DNA of 64,000 nucleotides from an uncultured Candidatus Saccharibacteria bacterium (GCA_964548265.1 CAZJPR010000003.1:279-64278), one strand, 5' to 3'; shown: positions 20,173-51,491, counted from the first letter of the stretch. Made by a program: numbers and translations. The notes: a model not told the origin generated them from the sequence alone.

Positions 20173-20199
20173 AAGACGGTAGTTCGCTATGCAACGTGA

Positions 20200-22196: not shown

Positions 22197-22221
22197 ACCT
22201 TTAGTGCGTTATCATACGTGC

Positions 22222-23682: not shown

Positions 23683-23683
23683 T

Positions 23684-26916: not shown

Positions 26917-26928
26917 AGAACTCTTTTA

Positions 26929-26964
26929 GAAACCGGCCGCCACTATGGCGGCCGGTTTCGTTTA
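26929..26964 (+). terminator. Rho-independent terminator/attenuator between SBP and permease genes
   Basis: ACCGGCCGCC-actat-GGCGGCCGGT followed by TTCGTTT. Confidence 0.6.
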
Positions 26965-26976
26965 TACTAGTGGCAC

Positions 26977-27852: not shown

Positions 27853-27855
27853 CTT

Positions 27856-30175: not shown

Positions 30176-30268
30176 AGATTTTGACGGCGAATCCGTCGTC
30201 TTTGTATGGGATAAATATACAGTATTTAAGCCATATAATCAATATATAGTTAGCTTTAGACGGATTTC

Positions 30269-30294
30269 CTGTACTTTCATGAAGAAAAGTACAG
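30269..30294. promoter_or_regulatory. Inverted repeat (candidate operator/5'-UTR hairpin) in the divergent regulator/SBP intergenic region
   Basis: CTGTACTTT-catgaaga-AAAGTACAG, 10 nt before ATG at 30305; perfect TATAAT at 30234-30239 upstream. Confidence 0.4.
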
Positions 30295-30304
30295 AATCGG
30301 CCCT

Positions 30305-31399: not shown

Positions 31400-31403
31400 T
31401 CGG

Positions 31404-32129
31404 GTGACTACAGAGACCCTCCTCAAACTCGACGACATCCACGTCCACTACGGTGGCGTGAAAGCACTTGATGGCGCATCAGTCTCGCTTGACGAAGGAG
31501 AGGTCGTTGCACTCATGGGCCCCAACGGCGCAGGGAAGTCCACCATCCTCAAGGCAATCTTTGGACTTGCTCCGGTAACTGGAGGCTCGGTCTCCTGGGA
31601 GGGAAGTGCAATACACCCTATCCCGCATGAAGTGGTAGCCCGAGGCATCGCCTTCGTTCCTCAGGGTCGCCGTGTCTTTGCGGACCTTACCGTAGAAGAG
31701 AACCTCGAGATAGGTGGATTCACCGTCAAAGACAAGGCAATCGTCCGTGAGCGCATCAAAGGGCTTATGGAAATGTTCCCTATATTAAAGGAGAAGCGAA
31801 ACGCCAAGTCCGGGACGCTCTCCGGAGGCCAGCAACAGATGCTCGCGATTGCCCGAGGTCTTATGACCGACCCTAAGGTCCTCTTGCTCGACGAGCCCTC
31901 CCTCGGACTCGCCCCTAAGGTGGTGAAAGAGGTCTTTGCGTTCGTGAAGGAGATTAACCAGAAGCGAAATACTGCCGTCATGGTGGTGGAACACAACATC
32001 AAGTCGCTCCTTGAGATAGCTACGAGAGGCTACATCCTCGACAAGGGAAAGGTGGTCGCCCATGGCTCCCCGCAGGAACTCGTATCCAAAGGGACGCTTG
32101 AAAAGGTGTTTACAGGTGCTGCGCTCTAG
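31404..32129 (+). CDS. livF: Branched-chain amino acid ABC transporter ATP-binding protein LivF
   Basis: Walker A GPNGAGKST, LSGGQQQML, LLLDEPS; GTG start. Confidence 0.85.
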   Translation: MTTETLLKLDDIHVHYGGVKALDGASVSLDEGEVVALMGPNGAGKSTILKAIFGLAPVTGGSVSWEGSAIHPIPHEVVARGIAFVPQGRRVFADLTVEENLEIGGFTVKDKAIVRERIKGLMEMFPILKEKRNAKSGTLSGGQQQMLAIARGLMTDPKVLLLDEPSLGLAPKVVKEVFAFVKEINQKRNTAVMVVEHNIKSLLEIATRGYILDKGKVVAHGSPQELVSKGTLEKVFTGAAL

Positions 32130-36304: not shown

Positions 36305-36715
36305 ATGGAGTACACAATTCAGGCCGACGGCGGCTCGAGAGGCAACCCGGGGCCTGCAGGAGCGGGGGCCATTGTTCGGGACACCAAGGGAAAGACCGTT
36401 TTCACGGTCTCTGAGTTCTTGGGGTACACCACCAACAACGTGGCGGAATATACCGCCATCCTCAGAGCGCTCGAGGGCCTTGCAGAAGTAGCGGGAGCAA
36501 AGACCGCCACCGTAAAGATTGAGATGGATAGCGAGCTCGTCGTGAAGCAGATGCGTGGAGAGTACAAAATTAAGCACCCGAACCTGAAGCCACTTGCGAC
36601 CCAGGTCGCGCTCTTGCTTCACCGATTCAAATCAGTGACGTTCTCCCACATTCCGCGTGCAAAGAACAAAGACGCAGACGCGCTCGCCAACAAGGCGATG
36701 GACCGCGGTCACTAA
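36305..36715 (+). CDS. rnhA: Ribonuclease HI
   Basis: DGGSRGNPGPAG start, DEDD-type catalytic residues; 136 aa. Confidence 0.8.
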   Translation: MEYTIQADGGSRGNPGPAGAGAIVRDTKGKTVFTVSEFLGYTTNNVAEYTAILRALEGLAEVAGAKTATVKIEMDSELVVKQMRGEYKIKHPNLKPLATQVALLLHRFKSVTFSHIPRAKNKDADALANKAMDRGH

Positions 36716-36716
36716 C

Positions 36717-38180
36717 ATGCTCTTTGCGGGCAGCGTAGGATTTGCGCTTGGCATTCTCTTCTCAACGCTCGCTTCGCTTCCGCTTGCTGCTGCAGGATAC
36801 ATTGGCCTTCTTGGTCTTCTGTTCCTCTCCGCCGGAACAAAGCGTGTTGTCTATACCTTTATAGGTGTGGGTATGCTGTTCGCGGCTGTCGGGGTTGGCC
36901 GCACCGCACTCGTCCCAACATTCCCGGAAGCTCTGCTTCCGCTTCTCAACACAACGGTGACGCTCGAAGGAGAGGTGATTGCAGACCCCGATATCCGCGA
37001 GGAGAGCCAGAGAATCTCCCTACGCACGAATGACACCACCGTGCTTGCGATTGTTCCGCTGTATCCAGACGTGAACTACGGTGAGTGGGTGCGCGTTGAG
37101 GGGAAACTTGTACTCCCCAAACCGTTTGCTACTGATGGTGGCCGTGTCTTCCGCTACGATCATTTCCTCCAGAAAGATGGTGTCTTCGCTCTTGTAGAGC
37201 GGGCACATCTTGAAGTCACCGCACCTAGAGCCGGGACTCTCACACATGTTCGCGGATTCTTCTCGGATGTAAAAACAGGATTCCTCCACTCTCTTGCTGT
37301 TGCGCTTCCTGAGCCGGAGGCTGCGCTTGCTGGTGGGCTCGTGGCAGGAGGGAAGCAGGGGCTCGGTACCGGATTGCTTGATGCCTTTATTCGCTCGGGT
37401 CTTATACACATCGTAGTTTTGTCTGGGTACAACGTAATGATTGTTGCTGAGGCAGTGATGCGACTTCTCTCGGTGTTCCCACGAAGAGTTGCGGTAACAG
37501 CGGCGGCACTCACTATCGGCGCGTTTGTCCTTGCGGCTGGTGCAGGGGCGGCAAGCATTCGCGCAGGACTTATGGCAGGCATCGCCCTCTTTGCCCGAGC
37601 TACCTACAAAACCTACGACGCCGTACGCGCACTTCTCGTCGCGGGCGTACTCATGCTTCTCTGGAATCCGCTTCTCCTTGTGTACGATCCGGGATTCCAG
37701 CTCTCTTTTATCGCAACCTTGGGACTCATACTCGGCGCACCGTTGGTAGAGACAAAACTTACGTTTATTACAAACACGTTCCTGCGCGAAATTGCTGCTT
37801 CTACTGTCGCGGCCCAGATTGCGGTGCTGCCACTTCTGCTGTACCAAAACGGGCTCTTCTCCGTAGTCGCTCTTCCTGCAAACCTCCTGGTGCTGCCAGT
37901 AGTACCGCTTGCGATGGCTGCCTCAGCGCTTGCCGGGCTTGCTGGGTTCCTCATACCCGCAATCGCTCCCGTTATCGGGCTTCCGGCGTACGTGCTGCTT
38001 TCCTACATCGTGAAGGTGGTTGAGTTTTCTTCAGGCATTCCTCTCGCAGCTTTCTCGGTGCCCGCGTTCCCGTTTGCAGTCACCCTCCTCGCGTATGCGG
38101 GGCTTGGCTACTATCTATGGAAGAACCGGGGTCTTATCCGTGCGCCCTCTGGAGGCGTGAGTCTACTACGGTCCAGTTAA
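36717..38180 (+). CDS. comEC: ComEC/Rec2 DNA-uptake channel (membrane 'competence' domain only)
   Basis: DUF4131-like N-region and Competence domain (GLIHIVVLSGYNV); ATG at 36717 directly after rnhA stop. Confidence 0.75.
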   Translation: MLFAGSVGFALGILFSTLASLPLAAAGYIGLLGLLFLSAGTKRVVYTFIGVGMLFAAVGVGRTALVPTFPEALLPLLNTTVTLEGEVIADPDIREESQRISLRTNDTTVLAIVPLYPDVNYGEWVRVEGKLVLPKPFATDGGRVFRYDHFLQKDGVFALVERAHLEVTAPRAGTLTHVRGFFSDVKTGFLHSLAVALPEPEAALAGGLVAGGKQGLGTGLLDAFIRSGLIHIVVLSGYNVMIVAEAVMRLLSVFPRRVAVTAAALTIGAFVLAAGAGAASIRAGLMAGIALFARATYKTYDAVRALLVAGVLMLLWNPLLLVYDPGFQLSFIATLGLILGAPLVETKLTFITNTFLREIAASTVAAQIAVLPLLLYQNGLFSVVALPANLLVLPVVPLAMAASALAGLAGFLIPAIAPVIGLPAYVLLSYIVKVVEFSSGIPLAAFSVPAFPFAVTLLAYAGLGYYLWKNRGLIRAPSGGVSLLRSS

Positions 38181-38730
38181 CGTTCTCGAGAAATGCTTCA
38201 ACGTAGGTTTTCTTTTCTGCAGGAACGTAATCAACCATGAACGCATGTTCCCAGAGGTCGAGCGCAAGAAGAATAGGGAGGCCGGAGAACTGCCCGAGTT
38301 CATGATCATTCACGAACGCGGTGTGCAACATGCCAATAGTGGCGTCGTAGTAAACAACCACCCATCCAATCCCACGAGTACCGGCGACCTCCTGTATATG
38401 TGCGAGGAATTCATCCCAGCCACCATATTTCTCCGTGACTCGTTTGCGAAGATTGCCTTGTCCGTCTGACACCTGCGACCCACCTTCGAACTGTTCAAAG
38501 TAGTACTCGTGCATGCGCATGCCATCAAACTCAAAACCTAGGCGGCGGCGCAGCTCATTAATAGTAAACGCGTTTGCTGCTGCATCCTCGTCACGCAGTT
38601 TCTTAATCGTATCGAGGATGAGATTCGTGTGCTTCACGTAGCCTTGGTAGAGGGCGAGGTGTACCTCTAGCTGCTTCTTGGAAAGCCCCTTGAGTTCCGG
38701 AAGGTCAAACGTCCGTGCGGTGTAGGTCAT
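38134..38730 (-). CDS. sodA: Fe/Mn superoxide dismutase
   Basis: Metal-ligand His residues; DLWEHAF motif; overlaps the comEC 3' end. Confidence 0.85.
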   Translation of the reverse strand: MTYTARTFDLPELKGLSKKQLEVHLALYQGYVKHTNLILDTIKKLRDEDAAANAFTINELRRRLGFEFDGMRMHEYYFEQFEGGSQVSDGQGNLRKRVTEKYGGWDEFLAHIQEVAGTRGIGWVVVYYDATIGMLHTAFVNDHELGQFSGLPILLALDLWEHAFMVDYVPAEKKTYVEAFLENVNWTVVDSRLQRAHG

Positions 38731-38783
38731 AGGTGTTCAGTATAGCGCTTCTTGCCTGAGGGGTCTGTGAGTATCATGGGCGC

Positions 38784-39629
38784 ATGTCTCGCGCACAGAT
38801 TCTCTGGACGCTCGTTGGTGCACTTGTGTTTGTGAACCTCGTGTTCCTCCTTCTTCTTGTGCCGCGCCCACACGAGCTCCGGATCTCGTACCTCAATGTT
38901 GGGCAAGGGGATTCCATCCTCATACAGGGACCAACGGGAGTCGACCTGCTTGTGGACGGTGGACGAGACCGTTCGGTGCTTCGAGAGTTGCCGAAGGTTA
39001 TGGGCATTCTCGACCGCTCTATTGATGCAGTGGTTGCCACCCACCCGGACGCCGATCACATCTCAGGGCTCTCCGATGTGTTTGAACGCTACCGAGTGCG
39101 GTATTTCTTGGAGCCCGGAGTTGAAAACGACACCAGCGCAACACTCAGACTCAAGAACGCCGTCAGCCACGAGTCGGGGGTCGAAGCACTGCTTGCAAGA
39201 CGCGGACAACGACTCAATCTGGGGGACGGCGCCTACGCCGACATCCTCTACCCTGCAGGAGACGTATCGAAGCTCGAGACCAACACTGGTTCAGTCATCA
39301 TGCGGGTGGTCTACGGCGAAACTGAGTTCATGCTCACCGGGGATGCCCCTATTTCTATAGAGAATTGGCTGGTCTCACAGAAAGGAAATCTAAACAGCGA
39401 TGTGCTCAAGGCCGGGCATCACGGCTCAAGAACCTCGACCAGTGACCAGTTCCTTGCAGCGGTCGCCCCGTCACTCGTGATTATCTCAGCAGGGAAGGAC
39501 AACAGCTACGGACACCCACACCCAGAGGTGCTTGAGCGAGTGAGCGCGGTGAGTGCACGCACTCTCTCCACCATTGAGAGCGGCACTATTACGCTTATGA
39601 GTGACGGGGTGACCATCAAACAAAAGTAA
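38784..39629 (+). CDS. ComEC C-terminal metallo-beta-lactamase domain encoded as a separate gene
   Basis: N-terminal TM; MBL motif HPDADHISG; GHHGS. Confidence 0.7.
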   Translation: MSRAQILWTLVGALVFVNLVFLLLLVPRPHELRISYLNVGQGDSILIQGPTGVDLLVDGGRDRSVLRELPKVMGILDRSIDAVVATHPDADHISGLSDVFERYRVRYFLEPGVENDTSATLRLKNAVSHESGVEALLARRGQRLNLGDGAYADILYPAGDVSKLETNTGSVIMRVVYGETEFMLTGDAPISIENWLVSQKGNLNSDVLKAGHHGSRTSTSDQFLAAVAPSLVIISAGKDNSYGHPHPEVLERVSAVSARTLSTIESGTITLMSDGVTIKQK

Positions 39630-39652
39630 AAGCCCCTTGTGGGGGCTTGTGC
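39627..39652. terminator. Terminator-like hairpin between convergent genes
   Basis: AAAAGCCCC-ttgtg-GGGGCTT. Confidence 0.5.
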
Positions 39653-39897
39653 TACTTAACGACTTTTGCCTTCTTGAGAGTGGCGTAGGCTCCGTTCTTC
39701 TTGATGTGGCGGAGGCCTTTGGTCGAAATATCGACGAGAACCGATTTTCCGAGCTCAGGGACGTAGATACGCCTCTTCTGGAGGTTCGCGCGGCGGCGAG
39801 TCTTTCCAACCGGGTTGTACTGGGTTGCACGGGTACGGTTAGAGTACCTTCCGCCTACCTGCGTGCTCTTTCCAGTGATTTCACATTCGCGTGCCAT
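39652..39897 (-). CDS. rpmB: 50S ribosomal protein L28
   Basis: MARECEITGK... typical L28 N-terminus. Confidence 0.85.
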   Translation of the reverse strand: MARECEITGKSTQVGGRYSNRTRATQYNPVGKTRRRANLQKRRIYVPELGKSVLVDISTKGLRHIKKNGAYATLKKAKVVK

Positions 39898-39930
39898 AGT
39901 CGCCGCATGCTAGCATAGCGGAAGCGTTTT

Positions 39931-40560
39931 ATGCAAACCGACCTCGAAACGAGCATTTTCACCATCCTGGTGCTCATTTTCTCCATCATCATCCACGAGG
40001 TGGCACACGGCTACGCTGCCTATGCTCTTGGGGACCCCACCGCCAAGCTTTCGGGGAGGCTGACGATGAATCCGCTGCCGCACTTGGACCCCATTGGCTC
40101 GGTTTTTCTCCCTGCGCTCCTCGTACTCACCAACGCCGGCTTTCTCTTCGGCTGGGCAAAGCCTGTCCCCTACAATCCGTACAATCTGCGCAATCAGCGG
40201 TGGGGTGAGGCCTTCGTGGGCATCGCTGGAGTAGCAACCAACCTTCTGCTCGCAGTCCTCTTCGCGATTGTATTTCGCGTTGCCGACAGTGCAGGACTCG
40301 ACCTCTTCGCGGCGCTTGCCGCCATCGTCGTGTTCGTGAATCTTTTCCTTGGACTCTTCAACCTCATTCCATTTCCTCCACTCGACGGCTTCACTGTGCT
40401 CCGGAGCATCCTCCCGAGCCGCTATGCAGTGCCAGTGCGCAACTTCGAGAGCCGGATGGGCATCTTCTCCCTCCTTCTGTTCCTTATGTTTTTCTCCTAT
40501 TTCCTCTCTGCACCCTTCTTCCAGTTCGTTATGTGGGTATTCGGCCTGCTGGTGGGGTAG
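39931..40560 (+). CDS. Site-2-protease-family (M50) zinc metalloprotease
   Basis: HEVAHG HExxH motif in a TM helix; NLIPFPPLDG second motif. Confidence 0.8.
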   Translation: MQTDLETSIFTILVLIFSIIIHEVAHGYAAYALGDPTAKLSGRLTMNPLPHLDPIGSVFLPALLVLTNAGFLFGWAKPVPYNPYNLRNQRWGEAFVGIAGVATNLLLAVLFAIVFRVADSAGLDLFAALAAIVVFVNLFLGLFNLIPFPPLDGFTVLRSILPSRYAVPVRNFESRMGIFSLLLFLMFFSYFLSAPFFQFVMWVFGLLVG

Positions 40561-40596
40561 GGAGGTATACTTTTGAGGTACCCCTAACCTTCCTCT

Positions 40597-40986
40597 ATGG
40601 AACTTACAATTCTGCTTTCTAAGATTCTCGGCGCATATATGTTGATTGCCGGTATCGCCGTGCTGATGAACCGCCGCCACCTCATGGCGGGCATCGTTGC
40701 GATGGCCAAGGAACGTTTTGCGCAGATTATGGCCGGCGTTATCGCCCTCTTGTTCGGCCTTGTACTGGTGAACATCCACAACGACTGGTCAACTCTTCCG
40801 GCTTCGATTATCTCCCTCATAGGGTGGGCAGCACTTCTCAAGGGTCTCTTCTATCTCTTCATGCCAGAGAAGGGTCTTACCAAGCTGATGCACGCTCTCA
40901 CTGAGCGCTCTTGGTACCTTATCGACGGCATCGTTATCTTAGTTGCCGGTCTCTACCTCGCAGGCTTCGGCTACGGCTGGTTCTAG
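40597..40986 (+). CDS. Small membrane protein, unknown function
   Basis: 129 aa, about 4 TM helices. Confidence 0.45.
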   Translation: MELTILLSKILGAYMLIAGIAVLMNRRHLMAGIVAMAKERFAQIMAGVIALLFGLVLVNIHNDWSTLPASIISLIGWAALLKGLFYLFMPEKGLTKLMHALTERSWYLIDGIVILVAGLYLAGFGYGWF

Positions 40987-41037
40987 ATTCACAGGGTGCG
41001 CCAGAAATCAGGCGCAAAGACGCTATACTATAGGAAC

Positions 41038-42027
41038 ATGCAGCTCTTTCGCGTTTCGCTCATGCTCCTCGTGCTCGGCCTGTTCCCGCTCTCGGCGGGC
41101 GCTCAGGCCCTGCTCCCAAGCAGTGACGCCATTACATTCATCGTCACACCCACCTACCCTCGGCCGTACGACACCATCATCATTTCTCCGAGAAGTACGC
41201 TGCTCAACCTTTCTGAGTGCATTGTTACTATCTCGGTGAACGGGACAATCGTGCAGGAAGGAACGGGCACGAGGTCGGCTGAAGCGACCATGGCAGGTCC
41301 GGGCTCCGCCACCGTGATTACCGTCTCCGCACAAGACCCAACAGGGGCGGTGTACCAAAAGGAACTCACGCTTCGCGCGGCAGATGTGTCCCTCGTCATG
41401 GAACCTATCTCAAGTTCCCATCCTTTCTATGAAGGATCGCCGCTCGTTGCTCCAGAGGGCCGTGTTCGCATCGTTGCACTTCCAGATTTCAGAGGTGCCG
41501 ACGGCGCAGTCATCCCACCACAAACCTTAGTGTACTCCTGGAAGAACGGCGAGAAGCAACTGACTGACCAGTCAGGGATTGGTCGCTCTGTTCTCGACGG
41601 CATCGCCCCGCTGCGCTACCGAAACGCAAACATTTCTGTGACAGTGACGAGCCAGGACCGATTGTTTGCGGGATCCGCAAGCGTTCTCGTCGCACCTGTT
41701 GAGCCTTCCGTGTACGTCTATCGCACCTACCCGCTTCTCGGCACTTGGCTTGAGCGGGCAGTCGGCTCGACCGCAACGTTAACCAACACTGAGGACAGCT
41801 ACCGGGCAGTCGGCTACAACTTCCGCCGCGTTCCGTCTTTCGCGTGGACTGTGAATGGGGCAGCGAACGAGACGGACGATGACATCACTGTGCGCATTAC
41901 AACGCCCGGCAGTGGCACCGCACAGATCGGCGTCACGGCAGAGGCAGAAGGTCTCTTCCAGCTCGCTAAGAAGACCTTCGCGCTTAAGTTTTCCTCCGGC
42001 AATTCCGTCGGCATATTCGGCCTATGA
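41038..42027 (+). CDS. Secreted hypothetical protein
   Basis: ATG at 41038 gives signal peptide MQLFRVSLMLLVLGLFPLSAGAQA; translationally coupled to the next gene. Confidence 0.5.
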   Translation: MQLFRVSLMLLVLGLFPLSAGAQALLPSSDAITFIVTPTYPRPYDTIIISPRSTLLNLSECIVTISVNGTIVQEGTGTRSAEATMAGPGSATVITVSAQDPTGAVYQKELTLRAADVSLVMEPISSSHPFYEGSPLVAPEGRVRIVALPDFRGADGAVIPPQTLVYSWKNGEKQLTDQSGIGRSVLDGIAPLRYRNANISVTVTSQDRLFAGSASVLVAPVEPSVYVYRTYPLLGTWLERAVGSTATLTNTEDSYRAVGYNFRRVPSFAWTVNGAANETDDDITVRITTPGSGTAQIGVTAEAEGLFQLAKKTFALKFSSGNSVGIFGL

Positions 42028-43175
42028 CACACCAACTCTTCCATCGCGCTTCGGGAATACTAGTGGGCATCGTGCTTGCTGCACAGATTGTTGGGCTCTT
42101 TGCGTTCCCGGCAGTTGCCTTTGCCGTTCAGTGTGATGGTTCAGAAGGTCCCCAATGTCTTACCAAGTGTTGCCCAGATTCGAGCGGAACGCTCCAATGC
42201 TCAGGTCTTCCCGTAAACGGCGACTGTCCTGCGGTGGCAACGACCGCAGACGATACCCCTGCAGACGATACCCCGGCAGCAGATGCTGAAGCAGAGGCAG
42301 CAGATGCCTCCACACAGGAGAGTGCTGGGTTTATTCCTTTGACGGATCTCCCGGGGCTTCGCGATGTCGCTAACTCCTCCAGCATTCCTGTATTCCTCAA
42401 CAACATTTACAAGCTCTGCATCGGCGCGGCAGCAGTGCTTGCGGTACTTCAGATTATGCGCGGCGGCATCACCTACATGCTCGGCGATAGCATCACTGAG
42501 AAAAAGGAGGCTCGCACCCTGATTCTGATGTCCGTTGTGGGTCTGCTCCTCGTGCTCTCCCCGGTAATTGTTTTCGGATTGATTGATCCAAGAATTCTTA
42601 ATCTTCAGTTAAATTTTGGAAACCTTGCCCCTGCGGAGCGGCCTGGCGTGGTGTCGGGTAACACCATAGATGTCTGTTCCCGCTTTGCTGACGACCCTGA
42701 CACTATGGTAGCGGTAACTGAGTTTGAGGACGGAAGCCTCCCGGGAAATGCCTCGACGTGGAATTACGGTCCTTCGAGCGATGCGTGTGTTTCCACCTGC
42801 TCTACCAAGACGCGCAGTGGCTCAGATTCAAGGCACTGCAGCACGGAGCGAGATCCGGAAAACCGAAACAATCTTATGTACTGTGACTGCCGCCCGTATG
42901 AGGTTTCCCGAACACAACACACCCTCAGGTCGGTTACGATTACAACGGGTGGTGAGCAGTACACACTCTCCGCGGTGCGATCGGTTTTCTTTGCCAACTT
43001 GGGACAATGTGAGGCCCTGACGGCAGGAACTGTACGAAATTATGTGGGAGGCGGGACCTTAGAGTGTCCTTCAGGGGCTGCAAACTATGCGGCGTGCGAT
43101 GCCGCCGTTCTTGCAGCGGTGAGCGGCGGGACGCTCACGGTAGATGAGGTTGAGTGCGCGCCGGCCGAAGTATAA
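42024..43175 (+). CDS. T4SS-pilin-like (TrbC/VirB2-like, CPR 'type IV secretion system pilin' family) protein with Cys-rich N-linker and ~190-aa Cys-rich C-terminal extension
   Basis: Signal peptide; core IPLTDLPGL...IYKLCIGAAAVLAVLQIMRGGITYMLGDSITEKKEARTLILMSVVGLLLVLSPVIVFGLI (two-helix pilin hairpin with GG-I-YM and KK motif); at least 20 Cys outside the core. Confidence 0.55.
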   Translation: MTHQLFHRASGILVGIVLAAQIVGLFAFPAVAFAVQCDGSEGPQCLTKCCPDSSGTLQCSGLPVNGDCPAVATTADDTPADDTPAADAEAEAADASTQESAGFIPLTDLPGLRDVANSSSIPVFLNNIYKLCIGAAAVLAVLQIMRGGITYMLGDSITEKKEARTLILMSVVGLLLVLSPVIVFGLIDPRILNLQLNFGNLAPAERPGVVSGNTIDVCSRFADDPDTMVAVTEFEDGSLPGNASTWNYGPSSDACVSTCSTKTRSGSDSRHCSTERDPENRNNLMYCDCRPYEVSRTQHTLRSVTITTGGEQYTLSAVRSVFFANLGQCEALTAGTVRNYVGGGTLECPSGAANYAACDAAVLAAVSGGTLTVDEVECAPAEV

Positions 43176-43177
43176 GT

Positions 43178-44422
43178 ATGGATATCCTACGGAAAAGACT
43201 CCCCATCATCATCGGCAGTGTCGTTGCCGTGAGTATCATCTTGGTGGCTATCTACTTTGTTTTCTTCAACACAACGCCGCCAGACGGAGCCGTTGATGGC
43301 GACCCATTTGGAGGCGCTGGGTCCGGCGACACGTTTGGGAGTGGTACTCCGAGCGTGCTTGATGGCGGCATTGAGTTCTCTGGTGACGCTGGAGTTGAGG
43401 TTGCGCCCCGCCTCGTGCGCATCACAAACGCTCCGGTTGCCTATGGTGTTGCGGCACTCTACATCCCTGAAGTGCCCGCCATCACCAACACAGACGGCGT
43501 GATCGTCCCCGCCATCCCTCCGGACATCGAAGTGCGCTTTGTTGAGCGGCAGAGCGGCAATCTCTACGCCTACCGTGTGCACGCACGCACCCTTACGCGC
43601 ATTTCAAACCAAACTATTCCTGGTGTGCGCGAGGCGCTCTGGCTTTCTGATGGGTCCCAGGCATATCTTCGCTTCCTGTCGGAGGATGTTGGCACTCACA
43701 TGGAAACCTACGCACTCCCCGCAGAAGGCGATGGAGGATTCTTCCTCGAGCAGGACCTGATAGACGTGGCGGCAACAAGCACCAACGGGCTTCTTACCCT
43801 TCAATCTGATACGAATGGCGCTATCGCCACCCTTGCGAAGGCAGATGGCTCGGTCCCTAAAACCGCCTTTACCACGGAACTCTCTTCCATTGTGGCTTCC
43901 TTCTTCGGAAAGGGATACTTGGTTTCAACTAAGCCGTCAGCGGGTCTTGCCGGCTACTCATTCTCAGTCTCAAGTACCGGCACGTGGAACCGTGTCTTGG
44001 GGCCACTCTCAGGGCTCGCCGCTATCGGCAATTCAACTGGCGCAGAACTACTGTACTCCTACACAAGCAACGGGGGACTGCGCACCGCCCTTATGGATAT
44101 GGCAACACGTACGCCGGTGCCGTTGCCAATCACCACACTGGCTGAGAAATGTTCGTTCTCGGGCGATGGAGCGAGTGTCTACTGCGCGGTACCGAAAATA
44201 CTTGGCGGCACACTCCCTGATGACTGGTACCACGGTATCGCCTCGTTCAATGACCGCCTCTGGCAGGTGAGTGTTTCCGACCGTTCAGCTATCCTTATTC
44301 TTGACCCTAGTGAAATCGCGCGGGTAGACATCGACGCAGTTTCGCTCACTCCTGACCCCACCAACGATGTTCTTGTGTTTACCAACAAGAAAGACGGTTC
44401 CCTCTGGGTGTACGACCTTTAG
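43178..44422 (+). CDS. Membrane-anchored (N-terminal TM) extracytoplasmic protein, unknown function
   Basis: ATG at 43178 (MDILRKRLPIIIGSVVAVSIILVAIYFVFF); overlaps upstream stop. Confidence 0.5.
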   Translation: MDILRKRLPIIIGSVVAVSIILVAIYFVFFNTTPPDGAVDGDPFGGAGSGDTFGSGTPSVLDGGIEFSGDAGVEVAPRLVRITNAPVAYGVAALYIPEVPAITNTDGVIVPAIPPDIEVRFVERQSGNLYAYRVHARTLTRISNQTIPGVREALWLSDGSQAYLRFLSEDVGTHMETYALPAEGDGGFFLEQDLIDVAATSTNGLLTLQSDTNGAIATLAKADGSVPKTAFTTELSSIVASFFGKGYLVSTKPSAGLAGYSFSVSSTGTWNRVLGPLSGLAAIGNSTGAELLYSYTSNGGLRTALMDMATRTPVPLPITTLAEKCSFSGDGASVYCAVPKILGGTLPDDWYHGIASFNDRLWQVSVSDRSAILILDPSEIARVDIDAVSLTPDPTNDVLVFTNKKDGSLWVYDL

Positions 44423-45168
44423 TCTGCGGCTTCTTGTACAGCGAGCGGTGCGTTGCGTAACTTACGAGCGATAAATATCTCCTGGAGGAAGGTGAATGTG
44501 TTGCTGGTTATAAAGTAGAGGGCGATAGCGCCTGAAGAGAAGGCAACGAGGCCTATGATGAGCGGGAGTGCGAAGCGAGCCTGGAGCGCCATTGCGCGAC
44601 CGAATTCCTCCTGCATAGACGCAGGAGCTGACGAAGTGTTCTTGGGCGGCACGGGAATGGCGACCATCGCGTGCGCAAACTGAGTTGCGGCTGCAAGGAT
44701 GGCAAGTATGAGACTTGCGCCGACGATAGGGAAGATGCCAAGGAAGAGGACGGACACGGCCTCTGGTACGGGAACGTAGGAGTAGAGAAGGGCGACATCA
44801 ACCTGCGCAAGGGATTCCTTCTGGAACACGAGGTAGAGGGAGATGAGTACTGGAATCTGGATGAGCAGCGCGAGGAAGCTCGCAAACGGCTTCACGTTGT
44901 ATTTCTTGTAGAGCGCGAACATTTCTTTCGCCTGGCGCTCTTTGTCGTCCTCGTACTGCTCCTTGAGTTTCTTCAATTCCGGCTCCATGGCCTTCATGGC
45001 CTTCTGCGTCTTGATGGCCGCAACCGTGAAGGGGAGCGTGATGATTTTCACGATGAGCGTGACCACCACCACGGCAAGGCCTCCATCGCCGTTCGGCAGC
45101 ACCCCCGTCAACCAAATGAGGAGGTTGTAGATGGGGATATAGAGCCACTCGTGGAAGAACTCAATCAT
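44419..45168 (-). CDS. yidC: Membrane protein insertase YidC (short form)
   Basis: 60-kDa inner-membrane-protein fold, 5 TM helices; rnpA-yidC synteny. Confidence 0.85.
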   Translation of the reverse strand: MIEFFHEWLYIPIYNLLIWLTGVLPNGDGGLAVVVVTLIVKIITLPFTVAAIKTQKAMKAMEPELKKLKEQYEDDKERQAKEMFALYKKYNVKPFASFLALLIQIPVLISLYLVFQKESLAQVDVALLYSYVPVPEAVSVLFLGIFPIVGASLILAILAAATQFAHAMVAIPVPPKNTSSAPASMQEEFGRAMALQARFALPLIIGLVAFSSGAIALYFITSNTFTFLQEIFIARKLRNAPLAVQEAAD

Positions 45169-45177
45169 AGAGGCATA

Positions 45178-45498
45178 CTACGCGCGAAGTGTCTTGGTGA
45201 GAAGGGCTGACAGCTCAGAGGCAAGCTCCTTATAAGGAAGGAGTGGGGCGCCAGAGCGGGCATAGGCGACCAGGGAGTGGTCGGCACTACACCACGGGCG
45301 CATGACGGCGAGCATCCGGCGCTTAAGTAGGTGGCGGGCAACCGAGAGGCGGGCGACCTTTTTGGAGACCACGACCGCGCAGCCTCCGTGTCCAGGGGCT
45401 GCTGGCCCTGCAGTAAGGGAGAAATGGGTGCTTGCGGCCCTAGAGCCCGAGGCTACAGGGAACGTCCGCCGGGTAAGACGCAGGCGGCGCGGCAGCAT
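45178..45498 (-). CDS. rnpA: Ribonuclease P protein component
   Basis: LPRRLRL..F N-terminus, basic RNR-like motif; rpmH-rnpA synteny. Confidence 0.75.
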   Translation of the reverse strand: MLPRRLRLTRRTFPVASGSRAASTHFSLTAGPAAPGHGGCAVVVSKKVARLSVARHLLKRRMLAVMRPWCSADHSLVAYARSGAPLLPYKELASELSALLTKTLRA

Positions 45499-45499
45499 G

Positions 45500-45643
45500 C
45501 TACTTAGAGGTCGAGAGGGAAGCGCGGCCCTTGCGGCGGCGGCGGGCTACGACGCGCTTTCCGCCTGGTGTTGCGGCCCTGGCGCGGAATCCGTGGGTCT
45601 TTGCGCGCTTCCTTTTCTTCGGCTGGTACGTTCGTTTAGGCAT
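45500..45643 (-). CDS. rpmH: 50S ribosomal protein L34
   Basis: [43 protein letters not shown] (47 aa). Confidence 0.9.
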
Positions 45644-45750
45644 GTTCGTGTGTTGTAGTGATGTCCACAGGATACTAACAGTTTCCCCAGCCGCCTGCAA
45701 CAAAAGGGGAGGCTTCACGAGACGACGTTCACGCGTATACTGTGCCAACG

Positions 45751-47097
45751 ATGAATAAGTCAGATCCTCGCGAACTTTGGGAACACGTGTTGTCGCAGGT
45801 CGAACTTTCAATTTCTCCAGCAAACTTTAATACTTGGTTCCGCGAGAGCTCAATTGTGAAGATTGAGGACGGGATTGTCTATATTGGTGTGCCTTCGCAG
45901 TTCTTCCGTGACTGGTACCTGAAGAAATTCCACCCCCTGCTACTTAAAATCATCCGCGGCGTCTCCTATGAGTTTAGAAATATCGAATACATGATTGTGA
46001 AGGACGCTTCTCGTAAGCCCCGGGAACAGAAAAGGAGGGAGCCCTCCATTGAAATGCCGCTTGATGAGTTCTACATCAACAAAAGTGACAACTTAAACCC
46101 GAAATACACCTTCGACACCTTCGTTATCGGTTCGTTCAACGAGCTTGCGTACTCTGCAGCGCAGGCAGTGCTCAATCGTCCGGGCATTACGTACAACCCA
46201 CTCTTTATTTACGGCGACACCGGGCGCGGAAAGACACACCTCATCCAGGCAATAGGGAACCACTACAAGAAACTGTACCCTACAAGGAAAGTGTTCTACC
46301 TAACGTCAGAGCGTTTTGCCGTTGATTACACCGATTCCATCCAGGCGGGGAACGCAAACCGCTTCAAAGAGAAGTATCGCCAGTACGACTTGCTCATCAT
46401 GGACGACGTGCAGTTCCTTTCAAAGAAAGAGAAGACCCAGGAGGAGCTTTTCCATCTCTTCAATGCGCTCCATGACAACAACCGGCAGATTATCTTCTCC
46501 TCAGACCGCTCTCCCCAGGCTATTCCTGATATTGCCGACCGCGTACGTGGCCGCCTCTCAAGTGGTATGACGGTGGATATCGGAGAACCTGACACAGAGA
46601 GCCGTATGGCCATTGTGCGCCGCAAGGCGGCCTCTCACGGCGTCACCCTCGGGGAAGATGTCATTGAGTACGTGGCCACCTCGGTCTCGGGCTCTATCCG
46701 TGAGCTTGAGGGGGTTATAAACAGTGTCGTCTGCCACACCCAGGTGAAGGGTGTTCCCCCAGACCTCGCAGAGGTTAGGCAGTCGCTGAGGGCCTTTTCA
46801 CGGCCTACTAAGACGGTTTCTGTGAAGCATGTGGTCTCTAAGGTGGCTGAGTTCTACGGTATTGATGAAGAGTCTATATATGAGAAGACTCGCCGCAGGG
46901 AGGTGGTGAGGCCGCGCCAGGTCATCATGTACCTACTGCGTGAGGACTTCTCAGTGTCCTACCCAACCATCGGCTCTAAGCTTGGTGGCCGCGACCACAC
47001 CACCGTCATCCACTCGTGTGAGAAGGTGAAGAGGGAGATTGTGGACGACACTGAACTTGCAAAAGAGATTCAGGCTATTCGTGGGCTGTTGGTATAG
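45751..47097 (+). CDS. dnaA: Chromosomal replication initiator protein DnaA
   Basis: AAA+ Walker [11 protein letters not shown]; C-terminal DnaA-box binding domain; ATG at 45751 (track ORF starts GTG 45742). Confidence 0.9.
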
Positions 47098-47307
47098 TTG
47101 TAGATAAGATATGGATAACTCTCAGATAGTCATGTGGGTAAGAGGAGGAAGGACACGTGTTCGTGTCGTTCGTCGAAAAAACTCCCGCGTCGTATCCCAG
47201 TGTGGTTCGACGTTCTCCACACCTTCTCAGTCTATCGATTGCAGTAACGCGTCGTACTTACTCACTGACTATAGTTTCCCCCGTATCAACAGGACTAATA
47301 AGAGGGT
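47098..47307. promoter_or_regulatory. Candidate oriC: dnaA-dnaN intergenic region with DnaA-box-like 9-mers
   Basis: TTATCCATA (revcomp of tatggataa), TTCTCCACA, TATCCCAGT; also TGTCCACA upstream of dnaA at about 45660; strong SD AAGAGGG before dnaN. Confidence 0.5.
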
Positions 47308-48408
47308 ATGGTAATTATTTTACAAAAAAAAGAATTCGCAGAAGTGGTGGGGATGGTATCTCGGTTTGCTGATCGACGTTCAGCAACGGTTCCTGCGCTT
47401 TCTGGAATCGCTATTGTTGCGGGGGATGATGGAATTAAAGTTCGTGCCACCAATCTTGAGACGGGAGTTGATATTCACATTGAAGGAACGATCAAGAACC
47501 AAGGTGCGATTGTTCTTCCGTCGACCATCCTTCGTGAGATTTCTTCCTCTTTCTCTGGAGAAGGTCAGGTGACCATTGAACACAGTGGGGATACTGCGGT
47601 CATAAGCTTTGGTTCCGCTAAGAGCACCATGAAGACACTTCCGTTTGAGGACTTCCCAACTCTTCCGCTTCCGGAGAATCCTAAGACAACGTTTACTATT
47701 GCTGGAGCAGCACTGAAGGCGCTTATTGGTACCGTCGCTCCTTGCGCATCCACCTCAACCATTCGTCCTGAGCTTGCATCTGTTCTTCTTTCTTCTGAAG
47801 GAGGAGTAGTGAAGGCGGTTGCAACTGATTCTTTCCGTCTTGCAGAGAAGAAGATGTCAGTGAAAGGGAAGATTGGGAACTTCTCCATACTTATTCCTGC
47901 AAAGAACGCGCTCGACCTTGCACAGACGATTCCTGATGATGAGGTTGAGGTCCGTGTGGGCGAGCACCAGTGTGCAGTCCTGTGGGCAAAGAGCACGATT
48001 ACAACGCGCCTCGTGTCGGCTGCGTATCCTGACTACACACAGATTATTCCTAAGTCCTTCTCGGTAGAGGCAACACTTCTCCGTAAGGACTTTGAGGGGG
48101 CACTTCGCCGCACCGCAGTCTTCTCTGACTCCTTCCAGAAGGTTCGTCTCAGCTTTGATGTCTCAGGCAAGAAACTGGCCCTTTCGGCACACAATGCGGA
48201 CGTAGGCGAGTCTGTAGAGCCTCTGACCGCGGCAATGTCTGGCGAGTCTCTTGAGCTTTCCTTCAACCACCGCTACCTACACACCCCACTACCTCTTATT
48301 ACCGCTGAGAGCATTACCCTGTCCGCGGGGGGCATAGGTAGGCCGCTAATCATCAAGGGGGTGGGGGATACGGGCTTCTTGTATTTGGTGATGCCGATGA
48401 ATCAGTAA
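47308..48408 (+). CDS. dnaN: DNA polymerase III beta sliding clamp
   Basis: Three-domain beta-clamp, 366 aa; position downstream of dnaA. Confidence 0.85.
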   Translation: MVIILQKKEFAEVVGMVSRFADRRSATVPALSGIAIVAGDDGIKVRATNLETGVDIHIEGTIKNQGAIVLPSTILREISSSFSGEGQVTIEHSGDTAVISFGSAKSTMKTLPFEDFPTLPLPENPKTTFTIAGAALKALIGTVAPCASTSTIRPELASVLLSSEGGVVKAVATDSFRLAEKKMSVKGKIGNFSILIPAKNALDLAQTIPDDEVEVRVGEHQCAVLWAKSTITTRLVSAAYPDYTQIIPKSFSVEATLLRKDFEGALRRTAVFSDSFQKVRLSFDVSGKKLALSAHNADVGESVEPLTAAMSGESLELSFNHRYLHTPLPLITAESITLSAGGIGRPLIIKGVGDTGFLYLVMPMNQ

Positions 48409-48415
48409 GAACCGC

Positions 48416-49429
48416 ATGAGCCTTTCCGAACAATTTAAGATTTTTTCGGAAAGGTACCCGAAAGAAAGCACGGAGCCGTTTCGCGCTACAGACACTTCGC
48501 AAATAATTACACGCACACTCCCTGGAATCTTACGAGAACGGCTGCAACTCGGGGAAAAGTACAGAATCTACGGGTCAACGGGTCGCGGTCGGTGGGCAGA
48601 AATTCCTTGGGTCGCTATTCTTGACAAGGAAATTACTAAAAGCACAGAGGATGGGTATTACGTCGTAATTCTTTTTGATAAAGAAATAAAGAATATCTAC
48701 CTGAGCCTTGCCGTCGGATGGCATCAGTTTGAGTGGGAGTATGGAATTAGGGACTCGCGAGCGAAAATTCAAGACGCTTGTAAATATTACGCTCACGTAC
48801 TCACTACAAAACTCGAAGGATTTAAGGAGGGAACAATTACACTTGGCGCAGAAAATATTCTCGGAAAAGGATACGAAATGGGGTGTGTGTTCTCTAAGGA
48901 ATATTCCATTTCTGATATTGAGGAGCCCGTCCTCTTAAATGACATCCAACACGTCCTGTCCTCCTATCAAGAGCTGAAAGATATTGTCGGCAACAGTATT
49001 CTTAATCTTGAAATTGATTCAGTGTCAAGTTCGGATGAGCGAGTGCGTACGTTCAAAAAGAGAATTGCAGAAAAGACGCTTACCGACGACAAGCTCGCCG
49101 CACTCGCACAACTGGTGCAAGAAGCAAATGCCGCCCCGCCGCCAATACGCACAGTCTTAAAGAAGGAAATTGTAAGAAATAAAACATTTGCTGCTGTTGT
49201 TAAGCAGCGCGAGGATTTTATATGTGAAGTCTGCAAAAGACTCCCTTTCATGCAAAGAAACGGAGCCCCGTATGCCGAGGCGGACCACATCATTCCACTT
49301 GGCGGAACGGAAAGAGGGAAAGACAGCCCAGACAATATGCGCTGTTTATGCGCCCAGTGCCACGCCATTCTTACGCACGGTTCCCCCAAAGAAATTGAGC
49401 AACTGTTAAATCGGACTACTGCCCCGTAA
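48416..49429 (+). CDS. MrcB_N (DUF3578)-HNH fusion: putative modification-dependent (Type IV) restriction endonuclease
   Basis: N-domain YRIYGSTGRGRWAEIPWVAILDK...YYVVILFDKEIKNIYLSLAVGW (DUF3578/MrcB-N signature); C-terminal HNH CEVCKRL...EADHIIPLGGTERGKDSPDNMRCLCAQCHAILTHG; low GC by eye. Confidence 0.6.
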   Translation: MSLSEQFKIFSERYPKESTEPFRATDTSQIITRTLPGILRERLQLGEKYRIYGSTGRGRWAEIPWVAILDKEITKSTEDGYYVVILFDKEIKNIYLSLAVGWHQFEWEYGIRDSRAKIQDACKYYAHVLTTKLEGFKEGTITLGAENILGKGYEMGCVFSKEYSISDIEEPVLLNDIQHVLSSYQELKDIVGNSILNLEIDSVSSSDERVRTFKKRIAEKTLTDDKLAALAQLVQEANAAPPPIRTVLKKEIVRNKTFAAVVKQREDFICEVCKRLPFMQRNGAPYAEADHIIPLGGTERGKDSPDNMRCLCAQCHAILTHGSPKEIEQLLNRTTAP

Positions 49430-51491
49430 ACCCACTCGCATTCAACGCCTGAATCGGATACTCCCAGTGCGCGTTCTGTGCATCGCGTCGTGAAGTTCCT
49501 CCACCCAACGGATTATCCTTATCTACCCAGTAGAGAATGTCGTGCACGCCGTCTTCTCCGGTGTATACACCACGCAGCGCAGGAGGGGCGTTCTCTGGAA
49601 TACCGCGCGGCTCACCAAAGAATTCTTTCGGACGCTTAGGAAGAGCGACATCCATGAACGCCCTCCACATAGGTGCGACCACGTAGCCTGCGGTCTCATG
49701 CACCATCGGGGTGTTGTCGTTGTTACCGGCCCAGACACCAACGGCAATTGAAGGTGTGTAGCCGACAGTCCATGTATCACGGTATTCGTTCGTGGTTCCG
49801 GTTTTCGCTGCAACCTCGTAGTCCGGGATGTTGAACGGGTTGTCCGGACGGTACGAAGGAATACGCGCCTGGTTGTTGGAAAGCATTGAGGAGATGTCAC
49901 GAGCGACCCCCGGATCAAGCACCGGTTCTGGATGCGCTTCGTATTCTTCAAGCACGGTGCCCTTCATGTCAGTGACCTTAAGGACGGCCACAGGAGGCAC
50001 GCGTACTCCATCGTTGGCGAAGACGCCGAAGGCGCTTGTAAGCTCGAGGAGCTTCACTTCTCCGGCTCCAAGGGCGAGCGAGAGGCCGTACTGATCGGCG
50101 TTGGTAAGGGTGCTGATACCCATCTGGCTTGCCAGCGCGATGACATTGTTGATTCCAGCCAGGTACATCGTCTTCACGGCCGGGATGTTAATGGACTGCG
50201 CGAGCGCTGTCGTGAACGTCATAGGGCCCCGGAACTTGTCATCGAAGTTTCCTGGAGCGTAGCAGGGGTACGCGGCATTGTAATTGTCTGCAGGACTGCA
50301 GGAGGTAGAGAACTGGGTAGGAAGGTCGAAGACAATGGTCTGCGGCGTGAAGCCCTTCAACAGCGCGGCTGCGTACACGAATGGTTTAAAGGAAGAGCCC
50401 GGCTGACGATTTGCGGTCACCGAGTTGTAGCTACCATCGATTTCCTCGTTGAAGTAATCGCGTGAGCCCACCATGGAAAGAATCTCCCCGGTCTTAGGGT
50501 CAATGGCCACAAGGGCGGCGTTGTTGGCATTGAATTTCTCGACGTTTGCCGCTCCGTATTCAGAGACGATGGTCTCCGCCTCGTGCTGAAGCTCAGCATC
50601 AATAGACGTGATGACCGTAAGTCCTTCCTCAACAACCTCTGGCCCATACTTCTCCTCGAGGTATTCGCGCACATAGAAGACAAAGTGTGGCGCAATAATA
50701 GAGGAGTTCGGCTGTGCGCTGAAGGTGACGACCTCGGCCTTTGCTGCTTCGTACTGCTCCTGATTAAGGAATCCAACCTTCTTCATGCGCTCGAGCACCA
50801 AATTCTTGCGTGCATCAAGCTCCTCACGATTGTTGCCGTACGGAGAATAGCGAGTGGGGGACTGCGGGAGAGCGGCCAAGTAGGCGGCCTCTCCAATGGT
50901 TACGTCCTTGGCAGACTTCCCAAAGAAGGCGCGCGAAGCGGCCTCAGCACCATATAAGGTGCCGCCGTACGGGGTGTTATTCAAATACAACTCGAGAATC
51001 TCATCCTTAGTGAAGCGCTGTTCGAGCTTCAGTGCGAGCACCCACTCGTGCACTTTGCGGATGATTGTTTTGTCTCCGGTCAAAAGCGTCATCTTCACCA
51101 CCTGCTGGGTGATGGTCGAGCCTCCTTGGCTAAAGGATCCGGTCGTAAGGTTTACCAACACTGCGCGCAGGAAAGAAATAGGGCGCACCCCCATGTGCTG
51201 GTAGAACGTGTCGTCTTCAATCGCAATAGATGCATTGCGGATGTTCTCGGAGATTGCTGAGAGCGGCACGATGTTGCGACGCACGTCAGTGTTGAGGTCG
51301 TAGAGAATGGTGTCGCCGGTGCGGTCGTAAATCTTGGTCGACTGCGTCACTTTGCGGTAGGAAAGGGAATCGAGGTCAGGCACCGGAGTAAGGGCCATGA
51401 GGATGAGGCCTGCCCCTGCAATACAGAAAAGGATGCCGGCGAAGACGAAAAGCCTGCGAGTGATGGGATGGGCGCGCTTCTTACGAGGCAT
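49416..51491 (-). CDS. mrcA: Class A penicillin-binding protein (transglycosylase + transpeptidase)
   Basis: N-terminal TM, GT51 motifs (EDDTFYQHMG), transpeptidase motifs SSFK, KTG. Confidence 0.85.
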   Translation of the reverse strand: MPRKKRAHPITRRLFVFAGILFCIAGAGLILMALTPVPDLDSLSYRKVTQSTKIYDRTGDTILYDLNTDVRRNIVPLSAISENIRNASIAIEDDTFYQHMGVRPISFLRAVLVNLTTGSFSQGGSTITQQVVKMTLLTGDKTIIRKVHEWVLALKLEQRFTKDEILELYLNNTPYGGTLYGAEAASRAFFGKSAKDVTIGEAAYLAALPQSPTRYSPYGNNREELDARKNLVLERMKKVGFLNQEQYEAAKAEVVTFSAQPNSSIIAPHFVFYVREYLEEKYGPEVVEEGLTVITSIDAELQHEAETIVSEYGAANVEKFNANNAALVAIDPKTGEILSMVGSRDYFNEEIDGSYNSVTANRQPGSSFKPFVYAAALLKGFTPQTIVFDLPTQFSTSCSPADNYNAAYPCYAPGNFDDKFRGPMTFTTALAQSINIPAVKTMYLAGINNVIALASQMGISTLTNADQYGLSLALGAGEVKLLELTSAFGVFANDGVRVPPVAVLKVTDMKGTVLEEYEAHPEPVLDPGVARDISSMLSNNQARIPSYRPDNPFNIPDYEVAAKTGTTNEYRDTWTVGYTPSIAVGVWAGNNDNTPMVHETAGYVVAPMWRAFMDVALPKRPKEFFGEPRGIPENAPPALRGVYTGEDGVHDILYWVDKDNPLGGGTSRRDAQNAHWEYPIQALNASGFTGQ

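Follow-up and report, generated by a model that had tools for sequence, protein, structure and literature searches.

A considerable part of the diversity of uncultured bacteria belongs to the ultra-small Patescibacteria (the Candidate Phyla Radiation, CPR), which live in attachment to host cells. Their published type IV secretion system (T4SS) combines a VirB4 ATPase related to the monoderm MPF-FATA class with TrsD, PrgI/VirB3, VirB6 and VirB2-like pilins, usually lacks a relaxase, and is often encoded beside dnaA, dnaN, rnpA and rpmH (PMC12102498; PMC12857230). A pilin array and the T4SS are essential for the epibiotic growth of Southlakia epibionticum (PMC10633639). Apart from the Patescibacteria T4SS with its VirB2-like pilins, no T4SS has been shown to be one that its bearer needs in order to survive. 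T4SS pilins were among the most highly expressed genes of unknown function in co-cultures of Paceibacterales (PMC10936435). A survey counted 2,474 virB4 genes in 3,035 Patescibacteria genomes, and about 40% of the assemblies that have both pilin and VirB4 encode them apart (PMC12102498). Here, a locus of this general kind was analyzed in a 64,000-nucleotide (nt) stretch of DNA from an uncultured Candidatus Saccharibacteria bacterium (GCA_964548265.1, CAZJPR010000003.1:279-64278), hereafter called the window, in which three adjacent genes, g1, g2 and g3, surround and include a predicted pilin gene (g2). The kind of system is known, and the variant has not been described within the searched literature: it would combine a single modular pilin bearing a recombining, hypervariable and disulfide-rich domain with fixed beta-sandwich and propeller partners, in an operon that is split in one clade. 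With a probability of roughly 60%, the trio is the distal pilin module of a Paceibacteria T4SS-like system whose variable outer domain is exchanged between strains.

Compared with the VirB2-like pilins described in Patescibacteria (PF18895; Quinonero-Coronel et al. 2025, PMC12102498; Wang et al. 2023, PMC10633639), g2 appears to have the same hairpin core in the same phylum, lies at the same origin-proximal site beside rnpA, rpmH, dnaA and dnaN, and has orthologous loci with an operon of VirB4, TrsD/TraC-like, PrgI/VirB3 and VirB6-like genes, in a cluster without relaxase or coupling protein. It differs in that there is a single pilin gene instead of an array of 2-11 paralogues, that the protein carries a 188-amino-acid (aa) hypervariable, Cys-rich domain and an N-terminal Cys/acidic insertion, that it is always flanked by g1 and g3 (one atypical locus aside, see below), two conserved genes that do not appear in the searched literature, and that the VirB4 half of the operon is not adjacent in the window's clade.

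The initial annotation had described three closely coupled genes, in which the neighbours of the pilin are a secreted protein and one anchored in the membrane, and the open reading frames (ORFs) as well as the synteny agree with a compact unit of this kind (Table 1). The g1-g2-g3 order is kept as a unit in more than 80 genomes, which is far beyond chance, and the gene calls of relatives give lengths and starts identical to those of the window. Of the two overlaps that had been claimed, the ATGA shared by g1 and g2 (42024-42027) exists, whereas the supposed 'TAAGTATG' overlap of g2 and g3 does not, as the g2 stop codon TAA (43173-43175) is separated from the g3 ATG (43178) by a spacer of 2 nt (TAA-GT-ATG). 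On the distal side, the stop codons of g3 (+) and yidC (-) share 4 nt (44419-44422), so that there is no space for a terminator between these convergent genes. The same junction is tight in nearly all of 80 related loci. Downstream of g3, yidC is followed by rnpA, rpmH, dnaA and dnaN. The cumulative GC skew is lowest (-0.32) at 42-44 kb and rises afterwards, which fits a replication origin near rpmH/dnaA (45.5-45.7 kb) and places the pilin module directly at the origin. A scan of 39500-45800 for promoters and terminators yielded a number of sites not above that in shuffled sequences.

Table 1. Positions of the genes, protein segments and other features discussed in the text (window coordinates).
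Feature	Position	Strand	Description
g1	41038-42027	+	329 aa; predicted secreted protein; conserved partner gene 5' of the pilin
g2	42024-43175	+	383 aa; predicted VirB2/TrbC-like T4SS pilin with added ectodomains
g2 signal peptide	42024-42125	+	aa 1-34; putative cleavage between PAVAFA and VQ, from sequence and hydropathy
g2 N-terminal insertion	42126-42323	+	aa 35-100; 6-Cys stretch, then acidic low-complexity linker
g2 pilin core	42324-42608	+	aa 101-195; FIPLTDLPG motif and two predicted transmembrane helices
g2 C-terminal ectodomain	42609-43172	+	aa 196-383 (188 aa), 10 Cys; hypervariable, predicted to be disulfide-rich
g3	43178-44422	+	414 aa; predicted bitopic protein; conserved partner gene 3' of the pilin
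Strain-variable block	41601-43192		3' third of g1 and whole g2; diverged from strain L007
g0	40597-40986	+	129 aa, four hydrophobic segments; just 5' of g1
yidC (60KD_IMP)	44419-45168	-	convergent with g3; landmark of the conserved site close to the origin
PilB-type ATPase with MshEN domain	17418-19169		type IV pilus gene (region 17418-25683)
PilC/T2SSF	20985-22196		type IV pilus gene
Pseudopilin with N_methyl motif	23561-24265		true pseudopilin of the window
Second PilB-type ATPase	54022-55698		type IV pilus gene

The assignment of g2 as a TrbC/VirB2-like pilin of the type found in CPR/Patescibacteria, which had been proposed from the sequence, is carried by its homologues. In a family set of 61 sequences (60 database homologues and g2 of the window), PF18895 was matched by 56 members (E<=0.01, best 1.2e-8) and TrbC/VirB2 by 35 (best 1.4e-5), indicating that the core belongs to the Patescibacteria VirB2-like pilin family as judged from sequence profiles. 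The profile check that the initial annotation had suggested gave a divided answer: the window protein itself stays below the Pfam cut-off for PF18895 (T4SS_pilin; E=1.9e-4, 21.9 bits, model positions 3-69 of 71) and scores E=0.08 for TrbC, and the family as a whole does match. The core is 53-98% identical across all 60 homologues, with 17 invariant columns; six or seven of the homologues are full-length (54-77% identity to g2), and the remaining ones align over the core alone (25-39% of the query). Many homologues are labelled PF18895 or 'pilin' by NCBI or JGI, from organisms named as Patescibacteria, Minisyncoccia or Parcubacteria. It could be argued that two-helix hairpins are information-poor and that the helices of an ordinary secreted or membrane protein match the hidden Markov model by accident, especially as the window protein is under the cut-off; however, the agreement of the family with two independent pilin models, the near-full model coverage, and the company of VirB4, PrgI and VirB6-like genes, which is kept without exception in the 65 informative loci, leave a spurious resemblance with a negligible chance of being correct.

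The anatomy of g2 is consistent with this family. Behind a signal peptide, called from sequence as was that of g1, lie two hydrophobic helices that are connected by a short charged loop (GDSITEKKEAR): hydropathy gave segments at aa 5-37, 123-150 and 162-194, and the AlphaFold2 (AF2) model has helices at aa 3-27, 121-153 and 157-187, with a predicted local distance difference test (pLDDT) score of ~73-84 for the core helices. As had been noted from the sequence, this core is flanked by a Cys-rich, acidic N-terminal linker (aa 35-100) and a long C-terminal extension (188 aa); however, the extension has 10 Cys rather than about 14, and the total of 17 in the protein is made up by six in the N-terminal part and one in the first helix. 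The N-terminal insertion is lineage-specific and missing from most homologues, and aa 72-103 have a pLDDT below 50. The mature protein would be ~349 aa long, with 66 aa before the core and 188 after it, and is therefore not a small hairpin-only pilin. No N_methyl match, the signature of type IV pilins, was found in g2; an NCBIfam scan of g0-g3 gave nothing useful, and PDB sequence searches with the family profiles of g1, g2 and g3 returned no significant match.

Among Gram-negative T4SSs, VirB2/TrbC/TraA (PF04956) resemble g2 in the signal peptide, the two hydrophobic helices with a short charged loop, the predicted location of both termini outside, the weak but repeated profile similarity (35 of 61 sequences) and, in the orthologous loci, the linkage to VirB4, VirB3 and VirB6. 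In contrast, the host of g2 is a monoderm, its mature length of ~349 aa exceeds the ~70-130 aa of canonical VirB2 pilins, it carries large ectodomains predicted to be disulfide-rich, no VirB5, VirB7-11 or VirD4 lies near it, and g2 gives no sign of cyclisation or of a pilus.

The genomic neighborhood in other species connects the trio with a secretion machine. A scan with the g3 profile, limited to one genome per species, produced 80 loci; the pattern used was WYQG, and the window's clade (WYHG) is thus outside this set. The sequences are titled Paceibacterota, Kaiserbacteria, Nomurabacteria or Parcubacteria, and many carry the pipeline label 'Saccharibacteria'. Mapped by tblastn, each of the 65 loci that extend at least ~2.4 kb upstream carries VirB4, then g1, a single pilin gene, g3, yidC(-), dnaA and dnaN. 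PrgI and a TraC-like gene also lie upstream in most of them, and the 15 of the 80 loci that had no VirB4 match have less than 2.9 kb upstream. In two relatives (L005 and L006), the trio adjoins yidC, rnpA and dnaA, and the genes directly 5' of it encode a secreted 500-aa protein, a polytopic VirB6-like protein, a 258-aa protein, PrgI (PF12666), a TraC-like protein (PF26593), a 606-aa VirB4-like ATPase (P-loop_TraG/DUF87) and a small membrane protein; the 1026-aa polytopic protein of L005 matches TrbL/VirB6 with E=6e-5. In the other species-level loci with enough upstream DNA, the orthologous trio closes an operon of VirB6-like, PrgI, TraC-like(TrsD) and VirB4 genes at its 3' side. With the trio in this position in 65 of 65 loci, the suggestion that the missing nearby ATPase sets the module apart from T4SSs is not supported and holds only locally. 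A role in host interaction instead of conjugation, which the initial annotation had also raised, would accord with what is published on the Patescibacteria T4SS, a system that has no relaxase and on which epibiotic growth depends (PMC12102498, PMC10633639).

The trio itself is tightly arranged in these genomes. g1 adjoins the pilin in 74 of 75 loci with sufficient upstream DNA, and the gap between the two genes ranges from -4 to +8 nt in 63 of 74 complete-trio loci, with the exact ATGA overlap in 39. Some loci are atypical: in L038, the exception with regard to g1, the pilin ORF is located 3' of g3; in L083, L044 and L026, ~0.4-1 kb separates pilin and g3; and L072 has two pilin-core ORFs. These may represent rearrangements, extra genes or pseudogenes. 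In addition, no other protein of the operon comes near the conservation of the VirB4 ATPase (L010-L089), which is 77-86% identical across Paceibacteria species (e.g., L011:5786-7606) whose g3 and g1 are ~45-50% identical.

The part of g2 behind the core evolves in a very different way. A C-terminal extension is present in every homologue, with 93-331 aa among the 60 protein matches and 48-331 aa (median 176) across 73 loci. The number of Cys residues in it is even and non-zero in 70 of the 73 loci (of the other three, two lack Cys and one has 11), which indicates an extracytoplasmic domain with its Cys paired in disulfides. The C-terminal domain has a mean pairwise identity of 17%, compared with 54% in the core, 49% in g3 and 45% in g1, and the contrast is stark between close species: in one pair of loci (L012/L013), g3, g1 and the core are 97%, 98% and 99% identical and the C-terminal domains 21%; the corresponding values are 91%, 91%, 92% and 24% in a second pair (L031/L033), and 90%, 94%, 98% and 32% in a third (L001/L009). 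When 136 C-terminal domains were compared by blastp, they fell into 38 clusters, and hhalign detected no homology among the six largest. At least three classes occur in the window's own clade, and the domain of the window had a single phmmer match in 1.84e9 cluster representatives, which is its own allele group. A comparison of its fold with the PDB gave no match. The AF2 model has a confident alpha/beta structure in the final ~85 aa (pLDDT 92-96 at aa 301-380), and this, together with three near-invariant Cys columns, hints that the C-terminal classes share a scaffold. The predicted exposed domain of the pilin evolves faster than any other part of this origin-proximal region, which is otherwise highly conserved, and is therefore a candidate determinant of host specificity.

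How such variation arises can be seen at strain level. A contig of a very close relative (L007; Logan SRR21677132) was aligned to positions 40861-49445 of the window. From 43200 to 49445 the two differ at 13 positions in 6.2 kb (99.8% identical), and from 40861 to 41600 at ~3% of positions, whereas between 41601 and 43192 they are 12-56% different in each 100-nt bin, with flanking bins 95-100% identical. Synonymous divergence (dS) is ~0.77 within this block; outside it, dS is 0.09 upstream, 0.03 for g3, and 0-0.013 for yidC and dnaA. Within the block, the C-terminal part of g1 and the pilin core are each 92% identical at the protein level, with ratios of nonsynonymous to synonymous divergence (dN/dS) of 0.06-0.07; by region, dN/dS is 0.07 for the core, 0.08 for g3, 0.33 for the C-terminal domain and 0.41 for the N-terminal insertion of g2, the last having 34% amino-acid identity between the two strains. 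Since dS is ~0.77 even where the protein is conserved, the block does not look like the result of local hypermutation; the data indicate that 41601-43192 is a long-diverged allele imported via homologous recombination.

A dedicated mutagenic mechanism, either a diversity-generating retroelement (DGR) or a cassette or inversion system, would be another source of variability concentrated in the C-terminal ectodomain, and DGRs are common in CPR bacteria. Such a mechanism is nevertheless highly improbable here: a repeat search of 39500-45500 found neither a template/variable pair nor flanking inverted repeats, no reverse transcriptase was found near the locus, and the differences from L007 span 1.6 kb that include the core and the 3' end of g1, where they are mostly synonymous. 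Homologous exchange of alleles would also account for a feature of the assemblies. One related contig (L008; GCA_020050275.1, JAHZTE010005838.1) ends within the pilin gene (locus end 11394), a break that fits a site variable in the population, and allele swaps at strain level explain the tendency of assemblies to break at this gene.

Similar behaviour is known from variable surface filaments, such as the D2/D3 domains of flagellin, the type IV pilin of Neisseria and the VirB2 paralogues of Anaplasma and Bartonella (cited in PMC12102498), with which g2 shares an analogy and no homology. The likeness lies in purifying selection on the polymerising or membrane part, fast turnover outside, and allele exchange between close strains; the difference is that the whole 3' part of the g1-g2 locus was replaced, instead of silent-cassette conversion or variation among tandem paralogues.

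The two partner proteins are much less variable. g1 has a predicted signal peptide of the cleavable type (aa 1-24, cleavage between AQA and L) and 100 homologues, nearly all ~325 aa long and all annotated as 'hypothetical'. No significant Pfam or PDB match was obtained for g1 of the window; weak matches to PF12733 (Cadherin-like) in 29 of 99 family members (best E 2.4e-5) suggest that it is probably a secreted protein of immunoglobulin/cadherin-like beta-sandwich domains. Its family ends in a conserved hydrophobic motif with the consensus ...GFGxFGL, in which F318, F327 and G328 are nearly invariant, and which could be a docking or sorting signal.

The family of g3 has at least 374 members, all of ~410 aa, annotated as 'hypothetical' and without Pfam domains, and g3 of the window had no match in Pfam, NCBIfam or PDB sequences. 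According to its AF2 model (118-sequence alignment; pLDDT 90.9, predicted template-modelling score 0.84), a transmembrane helix (aa 2-30) and a disordered linker (aa 31-70) precede an all-beta domain of ~28 strands that forms a 7-bladed beta-propeller (aa 73-414), so that g3 is modelled as a membrane-tethered propeller. The best Foldseek matches were 7-bladed propellers, namely oligogalacturonate lyase 3c5m (E 6e-10, TM-score 0.53), acylaminoacyl-peptidase and WD40 proteins, at 9-13% identity. Its resemblance to envelope propellers (3c5m, PD40/TolB-like and WD40 proteins) is therefore one of fold alone, with identities in that range and a TM-score of ~0.5, and we know of no propeller that is a component of a T4SS. 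In the comparison of the window with L007, dN/dS was 0.06-0.08 for g1, the pilin core and g3; being conserved about as well as the core, the two partners look like parts of a machine rather than specificity factors. g1 and the g3 propeller add two conserved partners that are not in published lists of T4SS components, within the searched literature. The small gene g0, on the other hand, occurs in the window, L001, L004, L007, L009 and L093 and is absent from L094 and from all loci in which the operon is joined, which argues that it is specific to the clade and probably not part of the conserved module.

The window's clade is alone in having the ATPase half not adjacent at the origin-proximal site. 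Its gene order, TIM-PGK-(RecJ)-RNaseH-ComEC-superoxide dismutase (SOD)-metallo-beta-lactamase-L28-M50 protease-(g0)-g1-pilin-g3-yidC, recurs in L001-L003, L004, L007, L008/L009, L093 and L094, that is, in at least seven independent assemblies, with g3 identities ranging from 100% to 50%. This recurrence shows that the split is old and stable rather than an assembly artefact, and, as the trio is the tail of the VirB4 operon in 65 of 65 other loci, the window represents a lineage-specific operon split. The absence of VirB4 and VirD4 near the trio, already remarked in the initial annotation, held up: tblastn searches of the 64 kb with VirB4, PrgI, TraC-like and other upstream T4SS proteins found no homologue, and Pfam scans of 20 larger ORFs of the window found no VirB4 or VirD4. 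The scanned ORFs instead comprise PilB, PilC and the pseudopilin, housekeeping genes and an amino-acid ABC transporter, the two PilB-type T2SSE proteins of the type IV pilus loci being the only secretion ATPases among them. Likewise, the 10 kb on either side of the trio in L001, L004, L093 and L094 contain no gene for VirB4, PrgI or a TraC-like protein. The low dN/dS (0.06-0.08) and the retained arrangement suggest that the trio would still be functional in this clade.

It is conceivable that the clade has lost the ATPase half of the T4SS altogether, and that the trio stands alone or works with the type IV pilus machinery of the window, for which PilB, PilC and pseudopilin genes are at hand. 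None of VirB4, PrgI or TraC-like genes is found within 41 kb upstream or 20 kb downstream, the same holds for the 10-kb surroundings in the four related loci, and the split is old and stable with the trio under purifying selection. Loss is nevertheless improbable. Separation of pilin and VirB4 is common (in ~40% of the assemblies that have both) and does not imply loss, virB4 is frequent in the phylum (2,474 genes in 3,035 genomes; PMC12102498), and the 77-86% identity of VirB4 across Paceibacteria points to strong retention. With its pilin module uncoupled from the ATPase genes, the split clade is a natural setting in which to ask if the pilin depends on VirB4.

Taken as the distal pilin module of a T4SS-like system, the trio may work as follows. 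The Sec signal peptide of g2 would be cleaved and its N-terminus would face outside, as predicted from sequence and family; the two-helix hairpin would sit in the membrane with the short, KK-containing charged loop in the cytoplasm, and the 188-aa disulfide-rich C-terminal domain, together with the N-terminal Cys/acidic insertion, would be exposed at the cell surface. By analogy with VirB2 systems, the VirB4 machine might draw pilin from a membrane pool and build it into a fibre or channel, of which the conserved hairpin would form the core and the variable domain the outer, host-facing surface. g1 and the tethered g3 could be conserved extracytoplasmic partners that act at the base of the fibre or along its length; presumably they belong to the base or serve assembly, and do not determine specificity. 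Exchange of the variable domain by homologous recombination is what one would expect if this domain decides which host or target is recognised, or if phages or host defence act on it, and either might be the source of selection. For the window's clade, it is assumed that the VirB6/VirB3/TrsD/VirB4 half acts in trans from elsewhere in the genome.

Several observations count against this view. g2 of the window scores under the Pfam gathering cut-off for PF18895 (21.9 vs 26.6 bits); no VirB4, VirB3, VirB6 or VirD4 gene lies within the 64-kb window; the dN/dS of the variable domain (0.33, from a single close pair) is raised yet does not exceed 1; a globular domain of ~20 kDa on every subunit may not fit the helical packing of VirB2-type pilins; the roles proposed for g1 and g3 are drawn from synteny and predicted fold; and a pilus has never been seen for any Patescibacteria T4SS. 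Some of these points lead to another explanation, possible though on the unlikely side, in which g2 does not polymerise and its hairpin is a membrane anchor, or a T4SS channel subunit, for a variable disulfide-rich adhesin, and in which g1 and g3 help to fold, present or retain the adhesin domain. Besides the missing pilus, a median ectodomain of 176 aa is unlike canonical VirB2 pilins, Gram-positive T4SSs normally do without pili (PMC12857230, PMC12102498), and g2 has no match among solved structures. However, the conservation of the hairpin (17 invariant columns, 53-98% identity, dN/dS 0.07) goes beyond what an anchor needs, and in other species the hairpin is always encoded with VirB4. C-terminal additions to F-pilin, moreover, can be displayed on pili.

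A more far-reaching proposal, which we regard as quite doubtful, joins a T4SS-derived fibre and a swappable recognition domain with a trio that acts independently of VirB4 in the window's clade. The near-invariant VirB2-like hairpin would polymerise, and the disulfide-stabilised outer domain would set which host cell is recognised; domains of at least 38 sequence classes would be swapped among co-existing strains via natural transformation and recombination, and in the window's clade the trio would be genetically, and possibly functionally, independent of the VirB4 ATPase. If true, a VirB2-type pilin would for the first time be in use independently of VirB4.

A few other features of the window deserve mention. 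A complete branched-chain-type amino-acid ABC importer is encoded at 25771-32129, with two periplasmic binding proteins, two permeases and two ATPases. ComEC is apparently split (36657-39629) into a part with DUF4131 and Competence domains (36657-38180) and a part with a metallo-beta-lactamase domain (38784-39629), and a gene for Fe-superoxide dismutase (38134-38730) lies on the opposite strand between the parts, overlapping the first; the same arrangement of split ComEC and SOD was found in L004, L008, L093 and L094. Just 3' of dnaN, a restriction-like gene encodes MrcB_N and HNH endonuclease domains (48416-49429). The same gene is present in L007, and a methyltransferase takes its place in L001, suggesting a small variable island beside the origin.

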